From contig JAOAFP010000007.1 in NCBI GenBank assembly GCA_026416215.1, positions 1 to 32,544 on the forward strand: DNA of 32,544 bases. The letters run 5' to 3'. A program made the translations under genes and the position numbers. The notes under the pieces were generated by a model that searched no databases, had not been told where the DNA came from, and worked only from the letters and a program-made list of their open reading frames with translations. Each line of letters starts with the position of its first letter. Within the stretch, counting starts at the first letter, position 1. This DNA is from Negativicutes bacterium. GTDB taxonomy: Bacteria; Bacillota; Negativicutes; SKW292. Below are positions 11,174 to 32,544 of the stretch, in pieces.

Positions 11174-11200
11174 AACGCTCCGCTGCCGGCGGAGCGTTTT
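11174..11200 (+). terminator. Intrinsic terminator after topA
   Basis: AACGCTCCGC (11174-11183) pairs with GCGGAGCGTT (11189-11198). The loop is 5 nt and the stem runs into TTTT. Confidence 0.8.
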
Positions 11201-11352
11201 GTCCAGCCGACGGGACTGGGTAGCCGGGCAGGGGCGATGACCGGGAATGGCAAGGCTGGACGCAGCCGGCGGCAGGGCAGGATATTGGCAGCCGGTGTGG
11301 AATGAACCGGGCAGGGCCGTTCGGTAATTTTAAATTGCAACGGAGAATGACA

Positions 11353-13488
11353 ATGAATCCGCTTTTTGCCCTTGACATAGGCACCCGCAGCGTGGTGGGG
11401 ATAGTCGGACGGCTGGACGATCAGCAACAGATCGTCGTTCAGTCGCACTACCGGCTGGAGCACAGAAAACGAGCCATGCTCGACGGGCAGATCCACGATG
11501 TGCCGGAGGTGGCACGGGTGTTGGCGGCGGTGCGGAAAAAACTCAGTGAGGCCGGAGGTCCGCTGACCGAGGTGGCAGTGGCGGCGGCCGGGCGGGCGCT
11601 ACTGACCACCCGGGCTGATGCCGAGCTGCATTTTTCGCCGGCATCACCGCTCAGCCGGCAGGATGAGCACGCCATCGAACTGCTGGCGGTACAGGCCGCC
11701 CAGCGGCAACTGGCCCTGTCGTACGATGAGCGGGCGGCCGCCCAGTACTACTGTGTGGGCTACAGTGTGATCAGCTACCATCTCGATGATTATCCGCTGA
11801 AGAGCCTGGTCGGCCAGACCGGTCGGCACGGCCGGGCGGAAATAGTGGCAACTTTTCTGCCCAGGCAGGTGATCGACAGCCTGCAGGTGGCGGTAAACGA
11901 AGCCGGCATGGAAATTGCCTCGCTGACTCTCGAGCCGATTGCCGCGATCCATCTGCTGGTTCCCGATACCATGCGCCACCTCAACCTCGTGCTGGTGGAC
12001 GTGGGGGCGGGGACCTCGGACATAGCTGTCACCAGTGACGGGGCGATTGTCGCCTATGGGATGGTGCCGCATGCCGGTGACGAGATCACCGAGGAACTGT
12101 CCCAGCAGTACCTGCTGGATTTCAACGAGGCTGAGTGGCTTAAGATCGCTTACAGCCGGGCGGCAGAGGGAGCGGAGCTGACTGCCCGCAACGTACTGGG
12201 ACGGGAAATTTTGGTTGCCCGGTCGGCGGTGGCGGCCTGCGTAGACCGGGCGGTTGCCCGGCTGGCCGATGAAATCGGCCGGGAGATCATCCAGCTGAAC
12301 GGTAAGCTGCCACAGGCTGTGCTGTTAGTCGGCGGCGGGGCCATGACCCCCAATCTGGATAAGTTTCTGGCCGGGCGGCTGGGGTTGCCGACGGAGCGGA
12401 TTGCCGTCCGCCGTCCGGACACGGTGGGCGGGTTTCTTAACCTGCCGGAAGAACTGTCGGCGTCGGACGCGGTTACCCCGCTGGGGATCATCGCACTGGC
12501 CGGCCGGCAGCGCTACCAGTTTATAACGGTGACTGTCAACGGCGAACGGTACCGGCTGTTTAATCTGGGGCGGCTGACGGTGGCAGACGGGCTGCTGGCG
12601 GCCGGCAGCGATCTGCGACGGGTGTTCGGCCAGCCAGGCAAAGGACTGACGGTGACGATCAACGGGCAGACCCGGACTGTCCCCGGGACGCTGAACCAAC
12701 CGGGCGAAGTGAGGAAGAACGGCGAAGTGTGCGCCATGGAAACCGGTCTTGACGACGGTGACGTGTTGACTGTGGTCCACGGGGTGGACGGCAGTCCCCC
12801 GCAGCTGACGGTGGCCGATTTGCTGCCGGTCCATGCCGCGGTGGAAATTTCAGTCAACGGCAAGGAATACCGGCTGGACGGAATGGTTAGCATCAATGGC
12901 CGTCGTGCCCGGTATGACACGCCGGTGGGCGATCGCGACGTGATCGTAACTGAAAATTTTGGCCGCATCGGTGAAATTCTTCAGTATTTCACCATCGACC
13001 ACACGGCACCGTCCTGCGAATTTTTCGTCAACGGCGAACGCCGTCAGTATCAGGCCCGGACCGAAATCCGCCTTAACGGCCAGCTGTGTGGCCCCGATCA
13101 ACTGGTATCGCCCGGTGACCGGGTGGAGATCGAGTTTTCCGGGGCGCCGACGGTTGGGGAACTGGTTAATGAGGACTGTGGGGACGATCAGTACATCACT
13201 CTGACCTTCAACGGCCAGCGCTGCGATCTGGCGGTGGCCCGCAACCAGCTGCTGCTGGACGGACAGGAAGTCGAACCGCACACCAGAATTTATCCCCGGG
13301 CCGAGCTGGTGATCAACCGGCAACGACTTAGCCAGCCTATCGTCAGCGACGTGCTGCTGGCGGCCGGCTACCAGCCACCGCTGTCGGTGGGGCGCGGGAA
13401 AATTTTTATCACCGTTAACGGCCGGCCGGCAGAGTTTATCACTCCGGTGGCGGCCGGTGACGAAATTACGATCGGGGTGACTGAATAG
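11353..13488 (+). CDS. Actin-fold (ASKHA; FtsA/PilM/EutJ-like) ATPase fused to a C-terminal array of 5-6 ThiS/MoaD-like beta-grasp modules. Function unknown.
   Basis: ASKHA motifs are FALDIGTRSVVG (phosphate 1), LVLVDVGAGTSDIAV (phosphate 2) and VLLVGGGAMTPNL (adenosine). The C-terminal roughly 320 aa repeats the pattern h-x-h-x-h-N-G ... N-G ... G-D-x-h-x-h. I prefer ATG 11353 (GGAGA 7 nt upstream; MNPLFALDIGT) over the track start 11302. Confidence 0.75.
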   Translation: MNPLFALDIGTRSVVGIVGRLDDQQQIVVQSHYRLEHRKRAMLDGQIHDVPEVARVLAAVRKKLSEAGGPLTEVAVAAAGRALLTTRADAELHFSPASPLSRQDEHAIELLAVQAAQRQLALSYDERAAAQYYCVGYSVISYHLDDYPLKSLVGQTGRHGRAEIVATFLPRQVIDSLQVAVNEAGMEIASLTLEPIAAIHLLVPDTMRHLNLVLVDVGAGTSDIAVTSDGAIVAYGMVPHAGDEITEELSQQYLLDFNEAEWLKIAYSRAAEGAELTARNVLGREILVARSAVAACVDRAVARLADEIGREIIQLNGKLPQAVLLVGGGAMTPNLDKFLAGRLGLPTERIAVRRPDTVGGFLNLPEELSASDAVTPLGIIALAGRQRYQFITVTVNGERYRLFNLGRLTVADGLLAAGSDLRRVFGQPGKGLTVTINGQTRTVPGTLNQPGEVRKNGEVCAMETGLDDGDVLTVVHGVDGSPPQLTVADLLPVHAAVEISVNGKEYRLDGMVSINGRRARYDTPVGDRDVIVTENFGRIGEILQYFTIDHTAPSCEFFVNGERRQYQARTEIRLNGQLCGPDQLVSPGDRVEIEFSGAPTVGELVNEDCGDDQYITLTFNGQRCDLAVARNQLLLDGQEVEPHTRIYPRAELVINRQRLSQPIVSDVLLAAGYQPPLSVGRGKIFITVNGRPAEFITPVAAGDEITIGVTE
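12523..13485 (+). repeat. Protein-level tandem array of about 60-aa beta-grasp-like modules inside the ASKHA gene
   Basis: In-frame seeds are ITVTVNG (12523), LTVTING (12646), VEISVNG (12841), CEFFVNG (13015), ITLTFNG (13195) and IFITVNG (13402). Most are followed by a second NG/DG and a GD-x-hydrophobic strand: DDGDVLTVV, GDRDVIV, PGDRVEIEF, AGDEITIGV. The DNA itself is not a near-identical repeat. Confidence 0.7.
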
Positions 13489-14430
13489 ATGACAAAGACG
13501 GGCCGTCGCGGTTATGACGAGCTGATAACTGCCGGCGACTGGCGGCGAATGCTGCAGGGAGCTTATCTGGCCTTTGTCAGGGAATACCACGCCATTGACC
13601 GGCTGAACTGCCGGGATGGGGTTAAAGGCGACACCGGAACCAACTTGCTGCTGACGGTGATGGCTGCACACCGGACGGCCCAGGCGACTGGTCAGGACGA
13701 CGGGCTGGGCGTGGTCTGCCGGCGGGCGGCCGACAGTGCCAGGCTGGCCGCCCGTGGTGCGGCGGGGAAGGTACTGGCCACTATGATGGACGGTCTGGCT
13801 GCCGGTCTGGCCGGTGAGGATAAGGCCACGGCGGCCAAAATGAGCCGGGCCCTGCAGCGGGCCATTCTGGCTGCCTACCGGGCTTCGGCCCGACCGGACG
13901 AAGGGGCGATGGTGGTGATCAGCCGGGCGATGGCCAGAGGGGCCCGGGCGGCCTTGTCCCGGCACTGGTCACTGGCCGAAGTGCTGGCTGCGGCGATTGA
14001 AGTGGGTGAGGAGGAAATTGGCCGCTGGGCAGATGCCGGCCGGACCGGGGGCTGGCAGGATCCGGGCGCCAGGGGGTTACTCCTGTTTCTGCGCGGCTGC
14101 CGGGAAGGATTGCTGGGGGCCAGTGACAGTCCCGAGGCCGATTTCGACCTCTGCCTGGAGCCGGTGGACGAACGGGGACAACCACTGACCAGCGGGGAAA
14201 TACTGCCGTACCGCCTGCGCCTGACCGTGAACGGCGCCCGTCTGCCGGCGGCAGCTGTAACCCGACAGTTGCTGGGGCTGGGGCGGGAGGTGATGGTTAA
14301 CCGCAACGGCGACCGGCTGACCGTCGGATTGGACACCGCCGCACCGGGCAGGGTGATCGACTGTGCCCTGTCGTGGGGGATAATCGGTGAGGTAAAAATT
14401 GTCAGCCGGGCAGATGCCGGGGATGGCTGA
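13489..14430 (+). CDS. Dak2/DhaL-like (FakA/YloV N-domain-like) protein with a C-terminal extension of about 75 aa carrying the same TVNG module motif
   Basis: ATG 13489 abuts the upstream TAG (13486-13488). Motifs IDRLNCRDGVKGDTGTNLL, ARGAAGKVL, ARPDEGAMVVISR and DPGARGLLLF align by eye with the Dak2 signatures LNVFPVPDGDTGTNM, GARGNSGVIL, PVEGTILTV and DSGGKGL. The C-terminus is YRLRLTVNGARL...VNRNGDRLTV. Confidence 0.65.
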   Translation: MTKTGRRGYDELITAGDWRRMLQGAYLAFVREYHAIDRLNCRDGVKGDTGTNLLLTVMAAHRTAQATGQDDGLGVVCRRAADSARLAARGAAGKVLATMMDGLAAGLAGEDKATAAKMSRALQRAILAAYRASARPDEGAMVVISRAMARGARAALSRHWSLAEVLAAAIEVGEEEIGRWADAGRTGGWQDPGARGLLLFLRGCREGLLGASDSPEADFDLCLEPVDERGQPLTSGEILPYRLRLTVNGARLPAAAVTRQLLGLGREVMVNRNGDRLTVGLDTAAPGRVIDCALSWGIIGEVKIVSRADAGDG

Positions 14431-14507
14431 CGGCAGCATCCGCAGCCGTAGCGGCCGGCCGTCGGCCGGCGTCTGCTGGTAGCGAAATTACGGAGGTGGG
14501 GTGGCTG

Positions 14508-16040
14508 GTGACGACGTTATACCTTGACGGGCACAGCCTGACGGTTGAAGATGTCGAGGCGGTGGCCCGGCGCTGGCGGCCGGTGTCGATCAGTCAGCTG
14601 GGTGTTGAGCAGCTTCGGCGCAGCCGGGCGGTAGTTGACCGGGTGCTGGCGGACGAGGTTCCCATGTACGGCATTTCGACCGGATTTGGCGAACTGAGTT
14701 CGGTGTACATTGTGGCGGATAAGCGGGCACTACTCCAGTACAACCTGATCGTCAGCCACGCAGCGGGAACAGGCGGGCTGCTGCCGGTTGACACTGCCCG
14801 GGCGGTAATGCTGCTCAGGCTGAACTCGTTGTGTAAGGGGTTTTCCGGGGTCAGACCGGAAACGGCCGGATTTATCGCCGAAATGCTTAACCGCCGGGTG
14901 ACTCCGGCCATTCCCTGCAAGGGATCGGTGGGAGCCAGCGGCGATCTGGCGCCGCTGGCCCACATGGCACTGGCGATGATCGGCGAGGGCGAGGTGTTTT
15001 ACAATGACCGGCTCTGGCCGGCCCGGCAGGCCCTGGCCGAAGTGGGGCTAATCCCGCTGGAGCTGGCCGGCAAAGAGGGGCTGGCCCTGATCAACGGCAC
15101 ATCGGTAATGTCGGCCTACGGCAACCTGGCCTGTTATGATGCCGGGCAGCTGCTGAAGCTGGCGGACATCGCCGGTGCCATGTCGCTGGAAGCCCTGAAG
15201 GGCACCCGGCGGGCCTTCGACCCGCGGGTGGCGGCTGTACGTCCCCACCCCGGGCAGGCAGCCACCGCCGACAATATCCTGCGGCTGACCGGGGACAGCG
15301 AGATTATTGCCTCGCATGCCAACTGCCGACGGGTGCAGGATGCTTATTCGCTGCGCTGCATATCCCAGGTCCACGGGGCATCGAAGGATGCCTGGCGGCG
15401 GGTGCGGGAGGTGCTGGACACCGAGAACAATTCGGTGACCGACAATCCGCTGATTATGCCGGACAGCGGCGAAATAATATCCGGTGGTAATTTCCATGGT
15501 CAGCCGGTGGCTTTGGTTATGGATTATGCCAAGGTGGCAACGGCTGAAATCGGCAATATTGCCGAGCGGCGAATCGCCCGGCTGGTCGACCCGGCCCTCA
15601 GCGGGCTGCCACCATTTCTGACTGCCAACGCCGGACTGCACTCGGGGATGATGATCATGCAGTACACAGCGGCCGCTCTGGTATCGGAAAACAAAGTGCT
15701 CTGCCATCCGGCCAGCTGTGATTCCATCCCCACCTCGGCCAACCAGGAGGATCACGTCAGCATGGGTACGATAGCCGCCCGCCAGCTTGGGGAAATACTG
15801 GAAAATGTCCGCAGTGTGGTGGCTATCGAATTGTTGTGTGCCGCCCAGGCGCTGGACTTCATGAAGCCGCTGCGGCCTGGGGTGGGGGTGGCGGCGGCCC
15901 GGACAGCCATTCGTGAGCTGGTCCCCCACTGGCAAGTCGACCGAATTGCCGCAGCTGACATGGAGGCTGTCCGGCGGATGGTGGCCGATGGCAGTCTGCT
16001 GGCCAGGGTGGAGGGAGCGGTTGGCAGTCTAGCGGTCTGA
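14508..16040 (+). CDS. hutH: Histidine ammonia-lyase (MIO-dependent)
   Basis: MIO-forming triad in GSVGASGDLAPLAHMAL, YGISTGFG, and the HAL-type Ser-His selectivity pair in LIVSHAAGTG. Also NSVTDNP and QEDHVSMG. I prefer GTG 14508 (GGAGG 12 nt upstream; MTTLYLDGHSLT) over 14496. Confidence 0.9.
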   Translation: MTTLYLDGHSLTVEDVEAVARRWRPVSISQLGVEQLRRSRAVVDRVLADEVPMYGISTGFGELSSVYIVADKRALLQYNLIVSHAAGTGGLLPVDTARAVMLLRLNSLCKGFSGVRPETAGFIAEMLNRRVTPAIPCKGSVGASGDLAPLAHMALAMIGEGEVFYNDRLWPARQALAEVGLIPLELAGKEGLALINGTSVMSAYGNLACYDAGQLLKLADIAGAMSLEALKGTRRAFDPRVAAVRPHPGQAATADNILRLTGDSEIIASHANCRRVQDAYSLRCISQVHGASKDAWRRVREVLDTENNSVTDNPLIMPDSGEIISGGNFHGQPVALVMDYAKVATAEIGNIAERRIARLVDPALSGLPPFLTANAGLHSGMMIMQYTAAALVSENKVLCHPASCDSIPTSANQEDHVSMGTIAARQLGEILENVRSVVAIELLCAAQALDFMKPLRPGVGVAAARTAIRELVPHWQVDRIAAADMEAVRRMVADGSLLARVEGAVGSLAV

Positions 16041-20510: not shown

Positions 20511-21335
20511 GTGCTAAGAAACTGGCAGAAAATGCTCATTTACCTGTCGCTGGCCGGGGTGTGGCTGGTGACGGCCGGACCATTTCTCTGGCTGCTCAGC
20601 ACCTCGCTCAAGGACAAAAATGCCAACATTTTCGCCTATCCGCCGCAATTCTGGCCGCAGCCGCCGACACTGGAAAATTTTGCCGTGGTCACGCAGGCGG
20701 TGCCGATGGCCGGCTATTTCGTCAACAGCCTGATTGTGGCGGCAATAGCAGTGGCCGGACAGCTGCTGCTCTGCTCGATGGCGGCGTTTCCGCTGGCCCG
20801 GATGCGGTTTGTCGGGAGGAGGCTGATCTTCCTGCTGATCGTCAGCACGATGATGATCCCTGGGCAGGTGTGCATTTTGCCGCTGTTTATCATGGTGGCC
20901 GGCTGGGGACTGAAGAACAGCTATCTGGGTCTGGTTCTGCCGTCTCTGGTCGGGGCGTTCGGGATTTTTCTGCTGCGGCAGGCATTCCTGGCCGTGCCGC
21001 GATCGCTGGAGGAGGCGGCGGTGCTCGATGGGATGAACCCCTGGCAGATCTGGTGGCGGGTGCTGCTGCCGGCCGTCAGACCGGCACTGTCTACGCTGGC
21101 CATATTTTCGTTCGTGGCAGTCTGGGGTGATTTTATGTGGCCGCTGCTGATCACCGACGATCCGCACTATTTTACCCTGGCCCTGGGGGTGCAGCAGTTG
21201 TCGGGGACATTCACCCTTGACTGGCGGCTGGTGGCGGCCGGGGCGGTGATCAGCATCCTGCCGATTGTCGTGCTGTTCGCCTTCTGTCAGCGCTACTTCA
21301 TCAGCGGCACGGTCACCTCCGGGGTCAAAGAATGA
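20511..21335 (+). CDS. Carbohydrate-type ABC transporter permease (MalG / CUT1 family), with no partner genes nearby
   Basis: Six predicted TM segments. Intact EAA loop SLEEAAVLDGMNPWQIWWRVLLPAVRP. GTG start after GGGGAGGGGGAAAG. Confidence 0.8.
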   Translation: MLRNWQKMLIYLSLAGVWLVTAGPFLWLLSTSLKDKNANIFAYPPQFWPQPPTLENFAVVTQAVPMAGYFVNSLIVAAIAVAGQLLLCSMAAFPLARMRFVGRRLIFLLIVSTMMIPGQVCILPLFIMVAGWGLKNSYLGLVLPSLVGAFGIFLLRQAFLAVPRSLEEAAVLDGMNPWQIWWRVLLPAVRPALSTLAIFSFVAVWGDFMWPLLITDDPHYFTLALGVQQLSGTFTLDWRLVAAGAVISILPIVVLFAFCQRYFISGTVTSGVKE

Positions 21336-22438
21336 AACTGTGGCTCAACCGGTGGGAGCCGCTGGTGATCATCACCATCCTGCTGTCCCTGGTCGGTACG
21401 GTCAACATATTAAGCGCCAGTTTTGTCCGGGCTGAGCAAATCTACGGCGATGCCTGGTTTTTCCTCAAGCGCCACCTGGTCTACCTGTCGCTGGGGATGG
21501 CGGTGCTGGCGGCGGTGATCAGGGTGCCGCCGGCCACCTGGCGCAACCGGCGGATGCTGACCGTGGCAACGGTGTCGATTGGGCTGCTTTTGCTGCTGGT
21601 TTCCTTCACCGGTGTCGGTACGGTAATCAACGGCTCGCGCCGCTGGCTGATGGTCGGCGGGGTTTTGCAGTTCCAGCCTTCCGAACTGGCGAAAATTGTC
21701 GTAATTATGCTGGCCGCTCGCTATCTGTCCGACAACCGGCGGCAGGGCGGCAATGTTTCGCTTTGGTCGGGGCCGCTGGCAGTGGCAGCGGGCTACGCCG
21801 CCATGGTCCTGAAGCAGCCGGATATGAGCACGGCTACCCTGATTGTGGCTGTGCCGCTGCTCCTGTTTCTGATCGCCGGGGTCTCCCGGGTTGCCTGGCT
21901 GGCATTGCTGACCGGTGGGGTAGCCGGTCTAATCGGTCTGGCCGGTTTTGCCAGTTACCGGCTGGCCCGGCTCAAAGCCTGGTGGGATCCCTGGGCGGAT
22001 TTTGACAAGAGCGGCTACCAGAGTGCCCAGGCACTGATCGCCATTGGTGCCAGCGGACTGACTGGAGCGGGGCTGGGCAAGGGCTACAGCAAGTTTAACT
22101 ATCTGCCCGAGGCCCATACCGATTTTGCCTTTGCCGTGCTGTGCCAGGAGTGGGGAATTGCTGGGGCGGTGGTGGTGACGGTACTGTTTGGCCTGCTGGT
22201 GTTCTACGGCGTGCAGGTGGCGATTCGGGCCGACCGGCACGGCTGCTTTCTCAGTCTGGGAATGATATTGCTGATCGGCTGTCAGGCCGCCGTCAACATG
22301 GCCATGGTTACCGGTCTGCTGCCGGTGATGGGAATTCCGTTGCCGTTCATCAGCTACGGGGGAACGGCGCTGCTGGTTCAGTTTTTTGCCGTGGCGGTGG
22401 TGGTGGCGGTCGGCCGGACCAACGAGCGGACGGCCTGA
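21332..22438 (+). CDS. SEDS-family peptidoglycan glycosyltransferase (FtsW/SpoVE-type)
   Basis: 368 aa polytopic protein with ILSASFV, RRWLMVGGVLQFQPSELAKI, PDMSTA, PEAHTDFAFAV and LPFISYGGTALL motifs. Its ATG overlaps the permease TGA (ATGA). Confidence 0.85.
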   Translation: MKLWLNRWEPLVIITILLSLVGTVNILSASFVRAEQIYGDAWFFLKRHLVYLSLGMAVLAAVIRVPPATWRNRRMLTVATVSIGLLLLLVSFTGVGTVINGSRRWLMVGGVLQFQPSELAKIVVIMLAARYLSDNRRQGGNVSLWSGPLAVAAGYAAMVLKQPDMSTATLIVAVPLLLFLIAGVSRVAWLALLTGGVAGLIGLAGFASYRLARLKAWWDPWADFDKSGYQSAQALIAIGASGLTGAGLGKGYSKFNYLPEAHTDFAFAVLCQEWGIAGAVVVTVLFGLLVFYGVQVAIRADRHGCFLSLGMILLIGCQAAVNMAMVTGLLPVMGIPLPFISYGGTALLVQFFAVAVVVAVGRTNERTA

Positions 22439-22459
22439 CAGTGGGGAGGAGGGAAGAAA

Positions 22460-23953
22460 ATGTTGGATCAAATTGATCTTTCCCGCACAGTGGACAAGGA
22501 GGAATACCGCCGGGAAATCAGGCGACTGGGGCTGAGACTGGCTGGATTGCAGCGGCAGGCCCGGGATTTGAAGATTCCCCTGGCAATAGTGTTTGAGGGC
22601 TGGAATGCCGCCGGCAAGGGAACGCTGCTGAACAAGCTGTTGCAGTGGCTGGATCCGCGGGGGTTCACCGTTTACAACATGAAGGCACCGCAGGAGGATG
22701 AAGCCATGCGGCCGTTTTTGTGGCGGTTCTGGCTGAAAACTCCGGCCCGGGGCAGAATTTCGATTTTCGACCGCAGCTGGTACCGGCGGGTGGTGACCGA
22801 CCGGGTGGAGCGCAAGGTGGGTGAACGACAGTCACTCAAGGATTATCACGACATTAGTGTCTTTGAGCGGCAGCTGGCCGACGATGGCTGTGTGGTGCTG
22901 AAATTTTTCCTTCACATCAGCAAAAAGGAGCAGGGCAAACGATTCAGGGCCCTTGAGGCCAACAAGTCCACCGCCTGGCGGGTGACGGCCGAGGACTGGC
23001 GGCACCACAAGGAATATGATGACTACCTGCGCATGTACGATGCAATGCTGGTTCACACCAATCATCATTATGCGCCGTGGACGGTGATTGAGGCGCAGGA
23101 TACCCGTTATGCCACCCTGAAGGTGTTCCGTCACCTGATCGACGCCCTGGAGAAACAGATTGCCGCCGTCAGGCAGGCGGCCGGCCGCCCGGCCGAGAAA
23201 CCGCACATCGATATCAATGACGGCAGCTGGCGCTGGGAGTCATCTATGCTGGAACGGGCCGATCTGTCGCTGACCATGTCCCGCGACGAATACAGGCAGC
23301 AGCTGAAAAAATACCAGAAGCGTCTGCTCGAAATCGAACACGAAATATACGAGCGGCGCATCCCGGTGGTTATTGTCTACGAAGGCTGGGATGCAGCCGG
23401 CAAAGGGGGGAACATCAAACGGCTGACGGAAAATCTTGATCCCCGCGGTTATGAGGTCATTCCGGTTTCCGCCCCCAGCCGGGAGGAATTCAGTCATCAC
23501 TATCAGTGGCGGTTCTGGCGGGCGCTGCCCAAGGCCGGACACATTGCGATCTTCGACCGTTCGTGGTACGGCCGGGTGCTGGTTGAGCCGATCGAGGGTT
23601 TCTGTACAGCCGGGGAGTGGCAGCGGGCCTATCAGGAGATCAACGAAATGGAGGAAACTTGGGCCAATTTTGGCACGGTGATCTTCAAATTCTGGCTCCA
23701 CATCGACAAGGAGGAGCAGCTGAGGCGGTTCAGCGAACGGCAGGCCAACCCCGACAAGCAGTACAAAATCACCGAAGAGGACTGGCGCAACCGGGACAAA
23801 TGGGACCAGTACCAGCACCTGGTGGATGAAATGCTGATCCGGACCAGTACCCCGTACGCGCCCTGGACGGTGGTGGAGTCCAACTGCAAGCTTTACGCCC
23901 GGATCAAGGTGTTGCAGAACATCGTTGAACGGATGGACAGGGTGCTGGGGTAG
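22460..23953 (+). CDS. Two-domain polyphosphate kinase 2 (PPK2 class II, polyphosphate:AMP/ADP phosphotransferase type)
   Basis: Two PPK2 modules, each with a P-loop plus FDRSWY: VFEGWNAAGKGT...IFDRSWYRR and VYEGWDAAGKGG...IFDRSWYGR. Both also carry the W+V / APW lid motifs. RBS is GGGGAGGAGGG. Confidence 0.85.
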   Translation: MLDQIDLSRTVDKEEYRREIRRLGLRLAGLQRQARDLKIPLAIVFEGWNAAGKGTLLNKLLQWLDPRGFTVYNMKAPQEDEAMRPFLWRFWLKTPARGRISIFDRSWYRRVVTDRVERKVGERQSLKDYHDISVFERQLADDGCVVLKFFLHISKKEQGKRFRALEANKSTAWRVTAEDWRHHKEYDDYLRMYDAMLVHTNHHYAPWTVIEAQDTRYATLKVFRHLIDALEKQIAAVRQAAGRPAEKPHIDINDGSWRWESSMLERADLSLTMSRDEYRQQLKKYQKRLLEIEHEIYERRIPVVIVYEGWDAAGKGGNIKRLTENLDPRGYEVIPVSAPSREEFSHHYQWRFWRALPKAGHIAIFDRSWYGRVLVEPIEGFCTAGEWQRAYQEINEMEETWANFGTVIFKFWLHIDKEEQLRRFSERQANPDKQYKITEEDWRNRDKWDQYQHLVDEMLIRTSTPYAPWTVVESNCKLYARIKVLQNIVERMDRVLG

Positions 23954-23965
23954 GCCGGACGGCGG

Positions 23966-25987
23966 GTGAACAGCGTGGCAACGGTGCAAAAACGGATCGT
24001 TCTGGTCATGCTGGCGGTGCTGGCGATGCTGGCCGCGGTGGTGGTGCGGGTGGCCTGGCTGCAGGCCGCCCGCAGTGATGAGCTGGCGGCCAGGCTTAGG
24101 GGACAGGTCATGGACAACAAGGCGATCAATATGCCGCGGGGGCCGATTTACGACCGCAATGGCCGGGAAATGGCGATGAGCATCACGGTTAAATCCCTGT
24201 ACGCCGATCCGATGTTGATCCGGAAGGAGGGCAAGGTCGATCCGGCAGCGGTGGCCCGGGCCATTTCCCCCCTGCTCGGGCTGAGTGAGGATGAGATTGT
24301 CAGGAAACTGACAAGCGACAGCGGTTTTGTCTGGCTGAAACGGCTGCTGGACAAGCCGGCCAGCGACGAAATTGGCCGGCTGATCAGGGAAAACGGCTGG
24401 AACGGGGTTGCGTTTGTCGAGGAGAGCAAGCGGATTTATCCCAACGACGAGCTGGCAGCCCAGGTGATAGGGTTCGTCGGCACCGATGACAACGGACTGG
24501 CCGGGATCGAGCTGGAATTCGACAGCAAACTGCGCGGCGGCCGATACGACCAGTGGGTGGAAACCGATATGTCGGGGACGCCGATTTTCGATTCGATAAT
24601 TCAGTACACCAGCAAACGGCAGGGCAAAGCCCTGTACCTGACTGTTGACCAGGTGGTGCAGGCAATTGTGGAACAGGCGCTGGACCGGGGGGTGCAGGCC
24701 ACCAAGGCCGACGGGGCGGTGGCTATTGTTCTTGACCCCAGGACGGGTGAGGTGCTGGCCATGGCCAGCCGTCCGACCTTTAATCCCAATCGTTACGAGC
24801 AGGCCAGCCCGGTCAGCTGGCGCAACCGGGCGATCAGCATGGTGTACGAGCCGGGCTCGACCTTTAAGCCGGTGGTGGCGGCGGCGGCCATGCAGCTGGG
24901 ACTGGTCCATCCTGATGACCCGCTGTATGACGGCGGCTCGGTTAGTGTCGGCGAGCGGGTGATTAAAAACTGGGACGGCGGCGGACTGGGAGCGGTGACA
25001 TTCACCGACATAGTCAAGTATTCGGTCAATACCGGGTTTGTTCAGGTCGGGCTGAGGATGACGGCTGATCAGGAGCTGGATTTTGTCGAAAAATTCGGGT
25101 TTGGCCAGCCGACCAGGATTTCCCTGCCGGGAGAGGAAAGCGGGATTCTTTTCTCCCGGGCCGACATCACCCGCTCCGATCAGGCGTCGATGTCGATCGG
25201 CCAGGGTGTGGCTGTCACCCCCATTCAACTGATCCGGGCGATTGCTGCCATTGCCAACGGCGGCCTGCTGCTGGAACCACACATCGTGCGGGAAATTCGT
25301 GACGCCGAGGGCGGGGTGGAATTCGATGCATCAACCACCCCGGTCCGGCAGGTCATCCAGCCGGAGGTGGCAGCCGAACTGGCGAAAATGATGCAGCAGG
25401 TGATCAGCGACGGCAGTGGCAAGCGGGCGGCAGTGAAGGGCTATAACCTGGCTGGCAAGACCGGTACGGCTGAGCGGCTGCGCGAGGGAGGGGGAGGATA
25501 TTCCGGCTACATTGCCTCGTTTGTCGGGTTTGGCCCGGTCGAGGAGCCGCAGTTCGTCGTGCTGGTGGTGATCGACAATCCCAAGGGGCTGATCTACGGG
25601 GGAGAAATTGCCGCCCCGGTGTTCCGGGAAATAGTTTCACAGCTTCTCAGTTACCGCAATGTTCCCCGGACGGTGGACAGCGTGGTCGAGCAGGCGGCAC
25701 GGACCGCGGCCCCGCCATCCGGCAGCGATGGCAAGTCATCGCCGCCCCCTCCGGCCGGCAACGGCGCAACCGGCCGGCCGGTCATGCCGGACCTGCGGGG
25801 GCTCAACGTCCGGCAGGTCTGCACGATGCTGTCTGACCGGGGGATTGGGGTGAGAATAAACGGCAGCGGTCTGGCAGTCGGCCAGTCGGTGCCGCCGGGC
25901 CGCCCCCTGGATGAAAACGAAGTGGTGACGGTTGACTTTGCCTGGCCGGTTTCCCCGCTCGCCGGGCCAGGCAGGCAGGAACGATAA
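23966..25987 (+). CDS. Class B penicillin-binding protein (FtsI/SpoVD-type transpeptidase) with one C-terminal PASTA domain
   Basis: N-terminal TM anchor and the dimerisation-domain motif RGPIYDRNG. Catalytic motifs STFK, SVN and KTGTA are present. PASTA-like MPDLRGLNVRQVCTMLSDRGIGVRINGSGLAVGQSVPPG. Confidence 0.9.
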   Translation: MNSVATVQKRIVLVMLAVLAMLAAVVVRVAWLQAARSDELAARLRGQVMDNKAINMPRGPIYDRNGREMAMSITVKSLYADPMLIRKEGKVDPAAVARAISPLLGLSEDEIVRKLTSDSGFVWLKRLLDKPASDEIGRLIRENGWNGVAFVEESKRIYPNDELAAQVIGFVGTDDNGLAGIELEFDSKLRGGRYDQWVETDMSGTPIFDSIIQYTSKRQGKALYLTVDQVVQAIVEQALDRGVQATKADGAVAIVLDPRTGEVLAMASRPTFNPNRYEQASPVSWRNRAISMVYEPGSTFKPVVAAAAMQLGLVHPDDPLYDGGSVSVGERVIKNWDGGGLGAVTFTDIVKYSVNTGFVQVGLRMTADQELDFVEKFGFGQPTRISLPGEESGILFSRADITRSDQASMSIGQGVAVTPIQLIRAIAAIANGGLLLEPHIVREIRDAEGGVEFDASTTPVRQVIQPEVAAELAKMMQQVISDGSGKRAAVKGYNLAGKTGTAERLREGGGGYSGYIASFVGFGPVEEPQFVVLVVIDNPKGLIYGGEIAAPVFREIVSQLLSYRNVPRTVDSVVEQAARTAAPPSGSDGKSSPPPPAGNGATGRPVMPDLRGLNVRQVCTMLSDRGIGVRINGSGLAVGQSVPPGRPLDENEVVTVDFAWPVSPLAGPGRQER

Positions 25988-32535: not shown

Positions 32536-32544
32536 GCAGGCGGG

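Follow-up and report, generated by a model that had tools for sequence, protein, structure and literature searches.

The contig JAOAFP010000007.1 of a Negativicutes bacterium (lineage SKW292, assembly GCA_026416215.1) was analyzed from position 1 to position 32,544, a stretch referred to below as the window. On the forward strand of the window, a gene running probably from 11353 to 13488 encodes a protein of 711 residues in which an FtsA-like ATPase is followed by an array of ubiquitin-fold (beta-grasp) modules. The best overall explanation of the data, which can be held with moderate confidence, is that this protein is an FtsA paralog whose C-terminal part is made of five interleaved beta-grasp domains and which presumably acts as a scaffold. 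The interleaved topology of the array, taken on its own, is highly probable. In such a topology, the motif that opens a hairpin and the (N/D)G...GD tail that comes next in the sequence most likely belong to different domains, contrary to an earlier, sequence-only reading of the same DNA in which they were taken together as one module.

The repeats on which that reading was built are genuine. Six copies of the motif h-x-h-x-h-N-G (h, hydrophobic) lie in frame in the open reading frame (ORF) 11302-13488, exactly where they had been placed: ITVTVNG (residue 408, nt 12523), LTVTING (residue 449, nt 12646), VEISVNG (residue 514, nt 12841), CEFFVNG (residue 572, nt 13015), ITLTFNG (residue 632, nt 13195) and IFITVNG (residue 701, nt 13402), with spacings of 41, 65, 58, 60 and 69 residues. 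Translated in all six frames, the window contains only eight occurrences of the pattern, seven of which fall in the FtsA-like gene or in the gene that follows it. When an array profile (C-terminal 329 residues, 66 homologs) was compared with itself using hhalign, off-diagonal alignments were obtained with E-values of 8e-25 (shift of about 65 residues), 9e-20 (about 129) and 3e-9 (about 240). These self-alignments, together with the rarity of the motif in the window, establish that the periodicity is real. The second part of the proposed signature was recovered as well. In each of the three-stranded units described below, an N-G turn is followed by G-D exactly 14 residues later, and the N of each (N/D)G coevolves with the D found at precisely this distance. 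These couplings account for 4 of the top 16 pairs in a direct coupling analysis (DCA) and constitute the strongest coevolving feature of the array.

The fold of the modules was investigated with an AlphaFold2 (AF2) model of the array only (C-terminal 328 residues, 27 sequences), which reached a predicted local distance difference test (pLDDT) score of 88.5. A Foldseek comparison of this model with the PDB returned a beta-grasp protein for every top match. The best ones are the bacterial multi-ubiquitin-like (multi-Ubl) proteins 9cd2 and 9d59 (E 2e-5 and 7e-3), and the others include ISG15, the OASL di-Ubl, SAMP1, the TGS domain 2kmm (template modeling score, TM, 0.63; root mean square deviation, rmsd, 2.9 Å), MoaD, ThiS and 2Fe-2S ferredoxin-like proteins. 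Pfam searches carried out on 27 homologous arrays detected Ub-Mut7C in 24 of them, ThiS in 20, TGS in 15, ThiS-like in 13, DUF348 in 12 and Fer2_4 in 9. For the window protein, the ThiS model (PF02597) scored 34.2 bits on the whole sequence and 40.8 bits on the array alone, for a cut-off of 22.5. The predicted structure thus shows the modules to be ThiS/MoaD/TGS-like beta-grasp units, as had been proposed. Their number, previously given as five to six, is five: IFITVNG, the sixth seed, belongs to the last domain as its strand beta3 and does not open a domain of its own.

In the canonical beta-grasp fold, the elements follow one another in the order beta1-beta2, helix, beta3-beta4-beta5. The beta1-beta2 hairpin (h-x-h-x-h-N-G-x-x-x-x-h) is named here A, the helix H and the beta3-beta4-beta5 unit T, so that a canonical domain reads A-H-T. 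According to the AF2 secondary structure, the order of elements in the array is A1 H1 A2 T1 H2 A3 T2 H3 A4 T3 H4 A5 T4 H5 T5. Hairpins, helices and T units therefore number exactly five each, with one hairpin ahead of the first helix and none between H5 and T5. In the arrangement proposed here, domain k would consist of Ak, Hk and Tk, its helix being separated from its third strand by the first hairpin of the next domain, and the chain would cross three times between neighboring domains.

Under this assignment, the elements are distributed as follows, all on the forward strand. The first part of domain 1 (12517-12627) comprises A1 (ITVTVNG-ERYRLF, 12517-12564) and H1 (TVADGLLAAGSDLRRV, 12580-12627), as delimited by the AF2 secondary structure and linked by A1-H1 and A1-T1 couplings. 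Hairpin A2 (LTVTING-QTRTV, 12646-12681) lies between H1 and T1 and is, from the DCA, the putative beta1-beta2 of domain 2; pairs 52T-147V, 61P-131I and 60V-102L tie it to T2 and H2. T1 (EVRKNGEVCAMETGLDDGDVLTVV, 12706-12777), which provides beta3-beta4-beta5 of domain 1, is assigned from the pair N73-D87 and from H1-T1 and A1-T1 couplings, and the stretch matched by the Pfam TGS model falls in it. H2 (12802-12828) and T2 (MVSINGRRARYDTPVGDRDVIV, 12883-12954; pair N132-D146) complete domain 2, and A3 (VEISVNG-KEYRL, 12841-12876), delimited like them by the AF2 secondary structure, opens domain 3 (A3-H3 pair 116I-159I). In the same way, H3 (12961-12990) and T3 (TEIRLNGQLCGPDQLVSPGDRVEIEF, 13060-13137), connected by DCA pairs 159I-202V, 156I-208V and N192-D206, complete domain 3 on either side of A4 (CEFFVNG-ERRQYQ, 13012-13053), the hairpin that opens domain 4. 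From the AF2 model and the four-domain homologs described below, H4 (13147-13170) and T4 (RNQLLLDGQEVEPHTRIYPRAELVINRQR, 13240-13326) complete domain 4, and A5 (ITLTFNG-QRCDLAVA, 13189-13239) opens domain 5; the second strand of A5 and the first strand of T4 are modeled as one continuous 14-residue strand (AF2 E239-252). Finally, H5 (PIVSDVLLAAG, 13336-13368) and T5 (KIFITVNGRPAEFITPVAAGDEITIGVT, 13399-13482) form domain 5 together with A5, with the DCA pairs 241C-288A, 236F-284V, 236F-281V, 233T-312F, 281V-322I and N306-D320.

The case for the interleaving relies first on coevolution. Mean-field DCA was performed on 305 and then on 382 non-redundant arrays (effective number of sequences, Neff, 262 and 317). 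Among the top L/2 pairs of the larger alignment, 18 fall in the blocks Ak x (Hk, Tk), with k = 2-5, which corresponds to 7.7 per 1000 possible pairs. The blocks that are adjacent in sequence, A(k+1) x (Hk, Tk), contain only 6 pairs (2.5 per 1000), and the other block offsets range from 0.7 to 4.0 per 1000, the highest value being found at +3. Mutual information with average product correction (MI-APC) gave 12 interleaved against 6 sequence-adjacent pairs. In repeat-averaged maps, the beta1-beta5 contacts (A -2 with T +15) and the beta1-helix contacts appear only under the interleaved pairing.

A second line of evidence is provided by natural variants of the array, in which the number of domains varies from three to five, a variation that the sequence-only reading had suggested looking for. 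Eleven four-domain homologs, with arrays of about 262-294 residues, lack exactly A4, the H4 region and T4, that is three separate pieces of the chain. They keep A5, and the A5-H5-T5 unit is contiguous in these proteins. This contiguous A-H-T unit matches Pfam ThiS from position 3 to position 69 of 76. Taken with domains 2, 3 and 5 of the window protein after de-interleaving, it covers positions 2-69 of 76 with E-values of 1e-3 to 5e-2, whereas the native order of the array matches this model only at positions 40-69. The three-domain homolog P0264 keeps the same grammar, A H (A T H)n T.

The most serious alternative is an array of beads on a string, or of permuted domains, in which each helix-hairpin-three-strand repeat would fold locally, the first hairpin being then an extra element and the last unit being devoid of hairpin. 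This arrangement is unlikely. The sequence repeat detected by hhalign does have the helix-hairpin-strands phase, but a helix-first unit does not follow the beta-grasp order, and the Foldseek alignments, which extend over 90-116 columns for targets of 70-90 residues, fit the presence of an insertion in the query. The A-to-T connections, just 2-3 residues long in domains 2-4 of the AF2 model, could be tight turns; the corresponding junctions in homologs show an x-P-x kink and no tight turn. Some DCA pairs are sequence-local, 158E-176V and 51V-91V for example, and yet the full alignment gives 18 pairs against 6 for the interleaved blocks even though sequence proximity should favor local pairs. 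A5, in particular, strongly contacts H5 and T5 and not H4. Local folding is also difficult to reconcile with the four-domain homologs, where A4 and T4 were deleted separately and where A5 was kept right before H5 and T5 as a canonical ThiS-like domain.

Several observations nevertheless weigh against an interleaved array carried by an FtsA-like scaffold. The interleaving is judged from coevolution, natural variants, Pfam coverage and junctions, all of which are indirect evidence. When the alignment was split in two halves, which at this depth (Neff 119 and 144) are too noisy to reproduce the topology, the interleaved blocks prevailed in 5 of 8 and 6 of 8 comparisons, 11 out of 16 in all, which leaves some room for local folding. 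For domains 3 and 4, the DCA block scores hardly differ between the two topologies (0.70 vs 0.68 and 0.62 vs 0.60), so that domains 2 and 5 contribute most of the signal. Elements of domains 1-2 are also linked to elements of domains 4-5 by more couplings than can be explained (20F-281V, 13N-283D, 49L-322I); the rod might fold back on itself, molecules might touch head to tail, or the repeats might create an artefact. Taken singly, the domains score 14-20 bits with Pfam ThiS, under the cut-off of this model. The role of scaffold is deduced from the architecture of the protein, and the gene neighborhoods, which vary by lineage (fakA-like, aroA/ytxJ or azlCD), do not designate a single pathway. 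Nearly all sequences obtained in additional homolog searches, started from Lysinibacillus and Selenomonas proteins, were relatives with 74-100% identity, and they added little to the coevolution alignment.

In the N-terminal half of the protein, an FtsA-fold, actin-like (ASKHA) ATPase domain occupies positions 11353-12501, from residue 1 to about residue 385. In a full-length AF2 model (72-sequence alignment, pLDDT 88.1), the best Foldseek matches of this half are structures of FtsA (PDB 7q6f, 7q6d, 1e4g and 3wqt are those named in the comparison), with TM values of 0.84-0.88, rmsd of 2.7-3.1 Å and E-values of 4e-28 to 1e-27; for 7q6f, these figures are 0.88, 2.7 Å and 1e-27. The alignments span about 400 columns and include the 1C subdomain specific to FtsA, and PilM, EutJ and MreB rank behind as fold matches. 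The sequence models of FtsA, PilM, MreB and EutJ are matched too, PF14450 with 48 bits. The phosphate-1, phosphate-2 and adenosine motifs are all kept (DIGTRS, DVGAGTSD and VGGGA), and their residues are invariant or nearly so among 72 homologs. The model thus shows an FtsA-type actin fold with intact nucleotide-binding motifs, which gives a more precise identity to the actin-fold ATPase recognized previously.

This protein is nevertheless distinct from FtsA. It shares with it the whole fold, 1C subdomain included, over its 385 N-terminal residues, but a beta-grasp array of 325 residues replaces the linker and the amphipathic membrane-targeting helix. No C-terminal amphipathic helix was detected, the AF2 model showing no terminal helix at all: the C-terminus is beta5 of the last beta-grasp domain (...GDEITIGVTE). 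The score obtained with the FtsA equivalog model TIGR01174, 85.9 bits (87.7 bits in the genome search), is below its cut-off of 175.85. Furthermore, the gene is not part of the dcw cluster and does not neighbor ftsZ: it has topA on one side and a fakA remnant on the other.

On the basis of this architecture, we infer an ATP-binding scaffold endowed with a rigid acidic interaction rod. The FtsA-like half would bind ATP and may, as FtsA does, self-assemble in an ATP-dependent manner or dock on a larger machine. Woven domains should form a stiff rod and not beads on a string, and this acidic rod could serve as a protein-protein interaction arm of fixed length. Conservation along the rod is highest in the two end domains, 1 and 5, above all in the A1/H1 part, and lowest in domain 4. 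The closest structural relatives of the array are the Bub-type multi-Ubl proteins (Ubl3; 9cd2 and 9d59), in which several beta-grasps are likewise found in one bacterial polypeptide. According to Gong et al. (bioRxiv 10.1101/2024.11.21.623966), the Ubl3 proteins with three domains assemble into Ca2+-dependent homodimers and helical filaments. The array of the window differs from them by its five domains fused to an ATPase, an identity of about 10%, and the absence of an E1/E2/JAB operon and of a terminal Gly.

Another possibility is that the modules are RNA-binding units of the S4/TGS type, by which the protein would tether tRNA, rRNA or the ribosome to an actin-like ATPase. The pattern V-x-V-N-G...G-D-x-I-x-V is indeed common to S4 domains, and the partial Pfam matches obtained for S4 in 8 of 27 homologs (with E 8e-7 at best) and for TGS in 15 of them go in this direction. 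However, the S4 model (PF01479) is matched only from position 27 to position 48 of 48, which is its beta part, the alpha-L helices being absent, and no S4 protein figures among the top 50 Foldseek matches listed for the array. The charge is also opposite to the basic surface of S4 domains: the median isoelectric point (pI) of the arrays is 5.1 across the family for a net charge of about -10, and the array of the window has a pI of 5.05 and a net charge of -10. An RNA-binding role thus appears improbable.

The gene that follows the FtsA-like gene had raised a different hypothesis. Its product (13489-14430, forward strand, 313 residues) is a truncated and degenerate FakA paralog, consisting of a Dak2 domain and of the FakA middle domain, and its start codon abuts the upstream stop codon (TAG-ATG). 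It scores 61.8 bits with PF02734 (Dak2), matches positions 2-289 of the 530 positions of TIGR03599 (YloV), and shares 39% identity with Sporomusa malonica FakA (residues 5-302) along an alignment of 311 residues. Compared with FakA/YloV proteins (TIGR03599, NF038248), this remnant is devoid of the C-terminal domain, the first Asp of its DGDTG motif is replaced, and the Cys and His-x-His residues of the middle domain (PYC...HxH), present in Sporomusaceae and in most Selenomonadaceae copies, are changed to R and G-x-D. The genome (1.6 Mb, 85% complete) yielded neither a FakA C-terminal domain nor DegV/FakB. Apart from the remnant beside the FtsA-like gene, the fatty acid kinase system seems to have been lost. 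This remnant is also the only Dak2-domain gene found in the genome at this level of completeness.

The sequence-only reading had recognized a further copy of the beta-grasp motif in this Dak2-like protein (YRLRLTVNG...VNRNGDRLTV, 14209-14330), and had taken the shared module as a sign of hetero-oligomerization of the two proteins, or of a common ligand or partner. The strings are present where they had been described, LRLTVNG at nt 14215 and VNRNGDRLTV at nt 14296, both in ORF 13489-14430, but they do not correspond to a beta-grasp module. An alignment with 17 FakA-like neighbors places them in strands of the FakA middle domain, where FakA orthologs read PYCTEFxVK...lkVHiHT, without any V-N-G or N-G-D motif. 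The profile of this segment has no similarity to that of the array (hhalign probability 0.13%, E 0.45). The seventh copy is consequently a chance resemblance, given the alignment and the absence of profile similarity, and the hetero-oligomerization through a common module loses its basis. The juxtaposition of the two genes, the presence of a Dak2-domain gene as immediate neighbor in 30 loci of Negativicutes type, and its conservation in Selenomonadaceae despite the loss of the kinase motif DGDTGTN can be cited in support of such an association, but the pairing is absent in Bacilli and an association through a shared module is very improbable. A functional link between the two genes, or a physical interaction of another kind between their products, is possible. 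The conserved pairing in Negativicutes suggests a partner, and is not in itself evidence of contact.

The last and least probable alternative, in which the modules would carry sulfur, or else be freed by processing and serve as modifiers that an E1 enzyme helps to conjugate, follows from their similarity in sequence and fold to ThiS, MoaD, SAMP1 and the multi-Ubl proteins 9cd2 and 9d59, but it can be practically discarded since the protein has no C-terminal Gly-Gly (it ends with ...GVTE and its domains are internal, as had been noted) and no E1 nearby, and since the release of a single domain would be impossible in an interleaved topology. We infer that the FtsA-like array protein is neither a sulfur carrier nor a conjugatable modifier. 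The aligned C-terminal tails of the homologs have no conserved Gly-Gly end, and none was seen at domain ends. No gene for a ThiF/MoeB E1, ThiG/MoaE, an E2 or a JAB protein is present in the window, and the two ThiF-family genes of the genome are on other contigs. The likeness with the ThiS, MoaD, TGS and Ub-Mut7C families (Pfam clan Ubiquitin) concerns the fold and the two-part signature (i-x-v-N-G in beta1; v-N-G in beta3-beta4 and G-D-x-v-x-i-v). The domains of the window differ by being internal, five in tandem, individually under the cut-offs, without Gly-Gly or E1 partner, and probably interleaved, none of them being contiguous in sequence.

The family to which this protein belongs is large. 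With the array profile, at least 919 clusters (50% identity) were retrieved at E <= 1e-3, and 216 at E <= 1e-30; the proteins are mostly 705-735 residues long. A scan based on full-length alignment found at least 529 confirmed relatives among representative species genomes, from at least 599 pattern matches. The relatives are found in Negativicutes and in many Bacilli (Lysinibacillus, Brevibacillus, Niallia, Oceanobacillus, Sporosarcina). In the source records, family members go by no other names than "cell division protein FtsA", "FtsA domain-containing protein" or "PilM". In 26 genomes of the same class, the FtsA-like/beta-grasp gene was detected in about 19 and canonical FtsA in 11. The two coexist in 11 of the 26 genomes, and the FtsA-like gene occurs without canonical FtsA in others, several of which are complete, single-contig genomes. 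In the genome of the window itself, no protein exceeds the TIGR01174 cut-off for canonical FtsA. The homolog of Selenomonas massiliensis (L014:7815-10292, 826 residues) carries an N-terminal extension of about 60 residues with two KRRGRPKK motifs resembling AT-hooks, and a C-terminal tail of about 60 residues past the array.

The genomic context of these genes depends on the lineage. In the 30 loci of Negativicutes type, a FakA-like gene is the divergent upstream neighbor. In Sporomusaceae, this neighbor is a canonical FakA with DegV. In Selenomonadaceae (L015, L017, L019, L021, L027-L029, L037 and L040), it is a protein of about 415 residues encoded on the minus strand just upstream, in which DGDTGTN and EGTIL are replaced (for example by GAGTLAGTH); judging from these substitutions, it looks like a pseudoenzyme kept beside the FtsA-like gene. 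In oral Selenomonas, the neighbor is a DhaL-like Dak2 protein of 269 residues. In Bacilli (L042-L084), the FtsA-like gene is located between aroA (DAHP synthase/chorismate mutase, by ccpA) and ytxJ-ytxH-ytxG-murC, a position where Bacillus subtilis 168 is not known to have any gene. Two four-domain loci were examined, from different samples (L169:1736-3718 and L171:6001-7932), and in both the gene is divergent beside azlC-azlD, encoding a branched-chain amino acid exporter.

In the window, the FtsA-like gene is preceded by dprA and topA, with a topA terminator hairpin at about 11174-11200, and followed by the fakA remnant and hutH. Read from its first ATG, the ORF 11302-13488 encodes 728 residues, and in-frame ATG codons are found at 11302 and 11347 in addition to the one at 11353. 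The last was preferred as the start because of a GGAG sequence at 11342-11345, 7 nt ahead, and of the consensus N-terminus of the homologs, MxKxLLFALDIG; the stop codon is the TAG at 13486-13488. The protein is present in a public protein collection as a form of 713 residues. The histidine ammonia-lyase gene (14496-16040) begins 65 nt past the FakA remnant, and no other hut gene was seen among the ORFs of the window that were scanned. About 7 kb downstream, positions 20511-25987 contain a tight block of genes on one strand, whose products are an ABC permease, an FtsW/RodA-family (SEDS) protein, a PPK2 with two domains and a class B penicillin-binding protein with a PASTA domain.

No publication on this FtsA-like/beta-grasp family was found in the literature searched, where the name "ThiS" is unusable, being read as "this". 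The combination of FtsA with beta-grasp domains is already visible in databases. The new elements are the interleaved topology, the series of three-, four- and five-domain forms that speaks in its favor, the finding that the two proteins share no module and, in Negativicutes, the link with a decaying FakA paralog. To our knowledge, a topology in which domains are woven together has not been described for beta-grasp proteins. The annotation can also be corrected, since these proteins, which have no membrane helix, are encoded outside the dcw cluster and score under the equivalog cut-off, are not FtsA.

FtsA-like actins organize division, pili and cell shape. More speculatively, the present family might constitute a new kind of cytoskeletal element or scaffold in bacteria, namely an ATPase derived from FtsA in which a rigid rod of hairpin-interleaved ubiquitin folds took the place of the membrane anchor and is used as a ruler or as a docking arm for lineage-specific partners. 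In Negativicutes, the partner of the rod would then be the catalytically dead FakA/Dak2 paralog, and the maintenance of a Dak2/FakA-like gene in adjacent position after the decay of its kinase motif makes this a concrete partner hypothesis. In the class, the FtsA-like/beta-grasp paralog is no less widespread than FtsA (about 19 of the 26 genomes, against 11) and yet unstudied, and it could take part of the role of FtsA in those Negativicutes that are devoid of the latter. If confirmed, the interleaved beta-grasp rod would represent a new way to make a stiff multi-domain arm from the ubiquitin fold and, given the existence of natural three-, four- and five-domain forms, a clean case of tandem repeats that evolved into interlocked domains.

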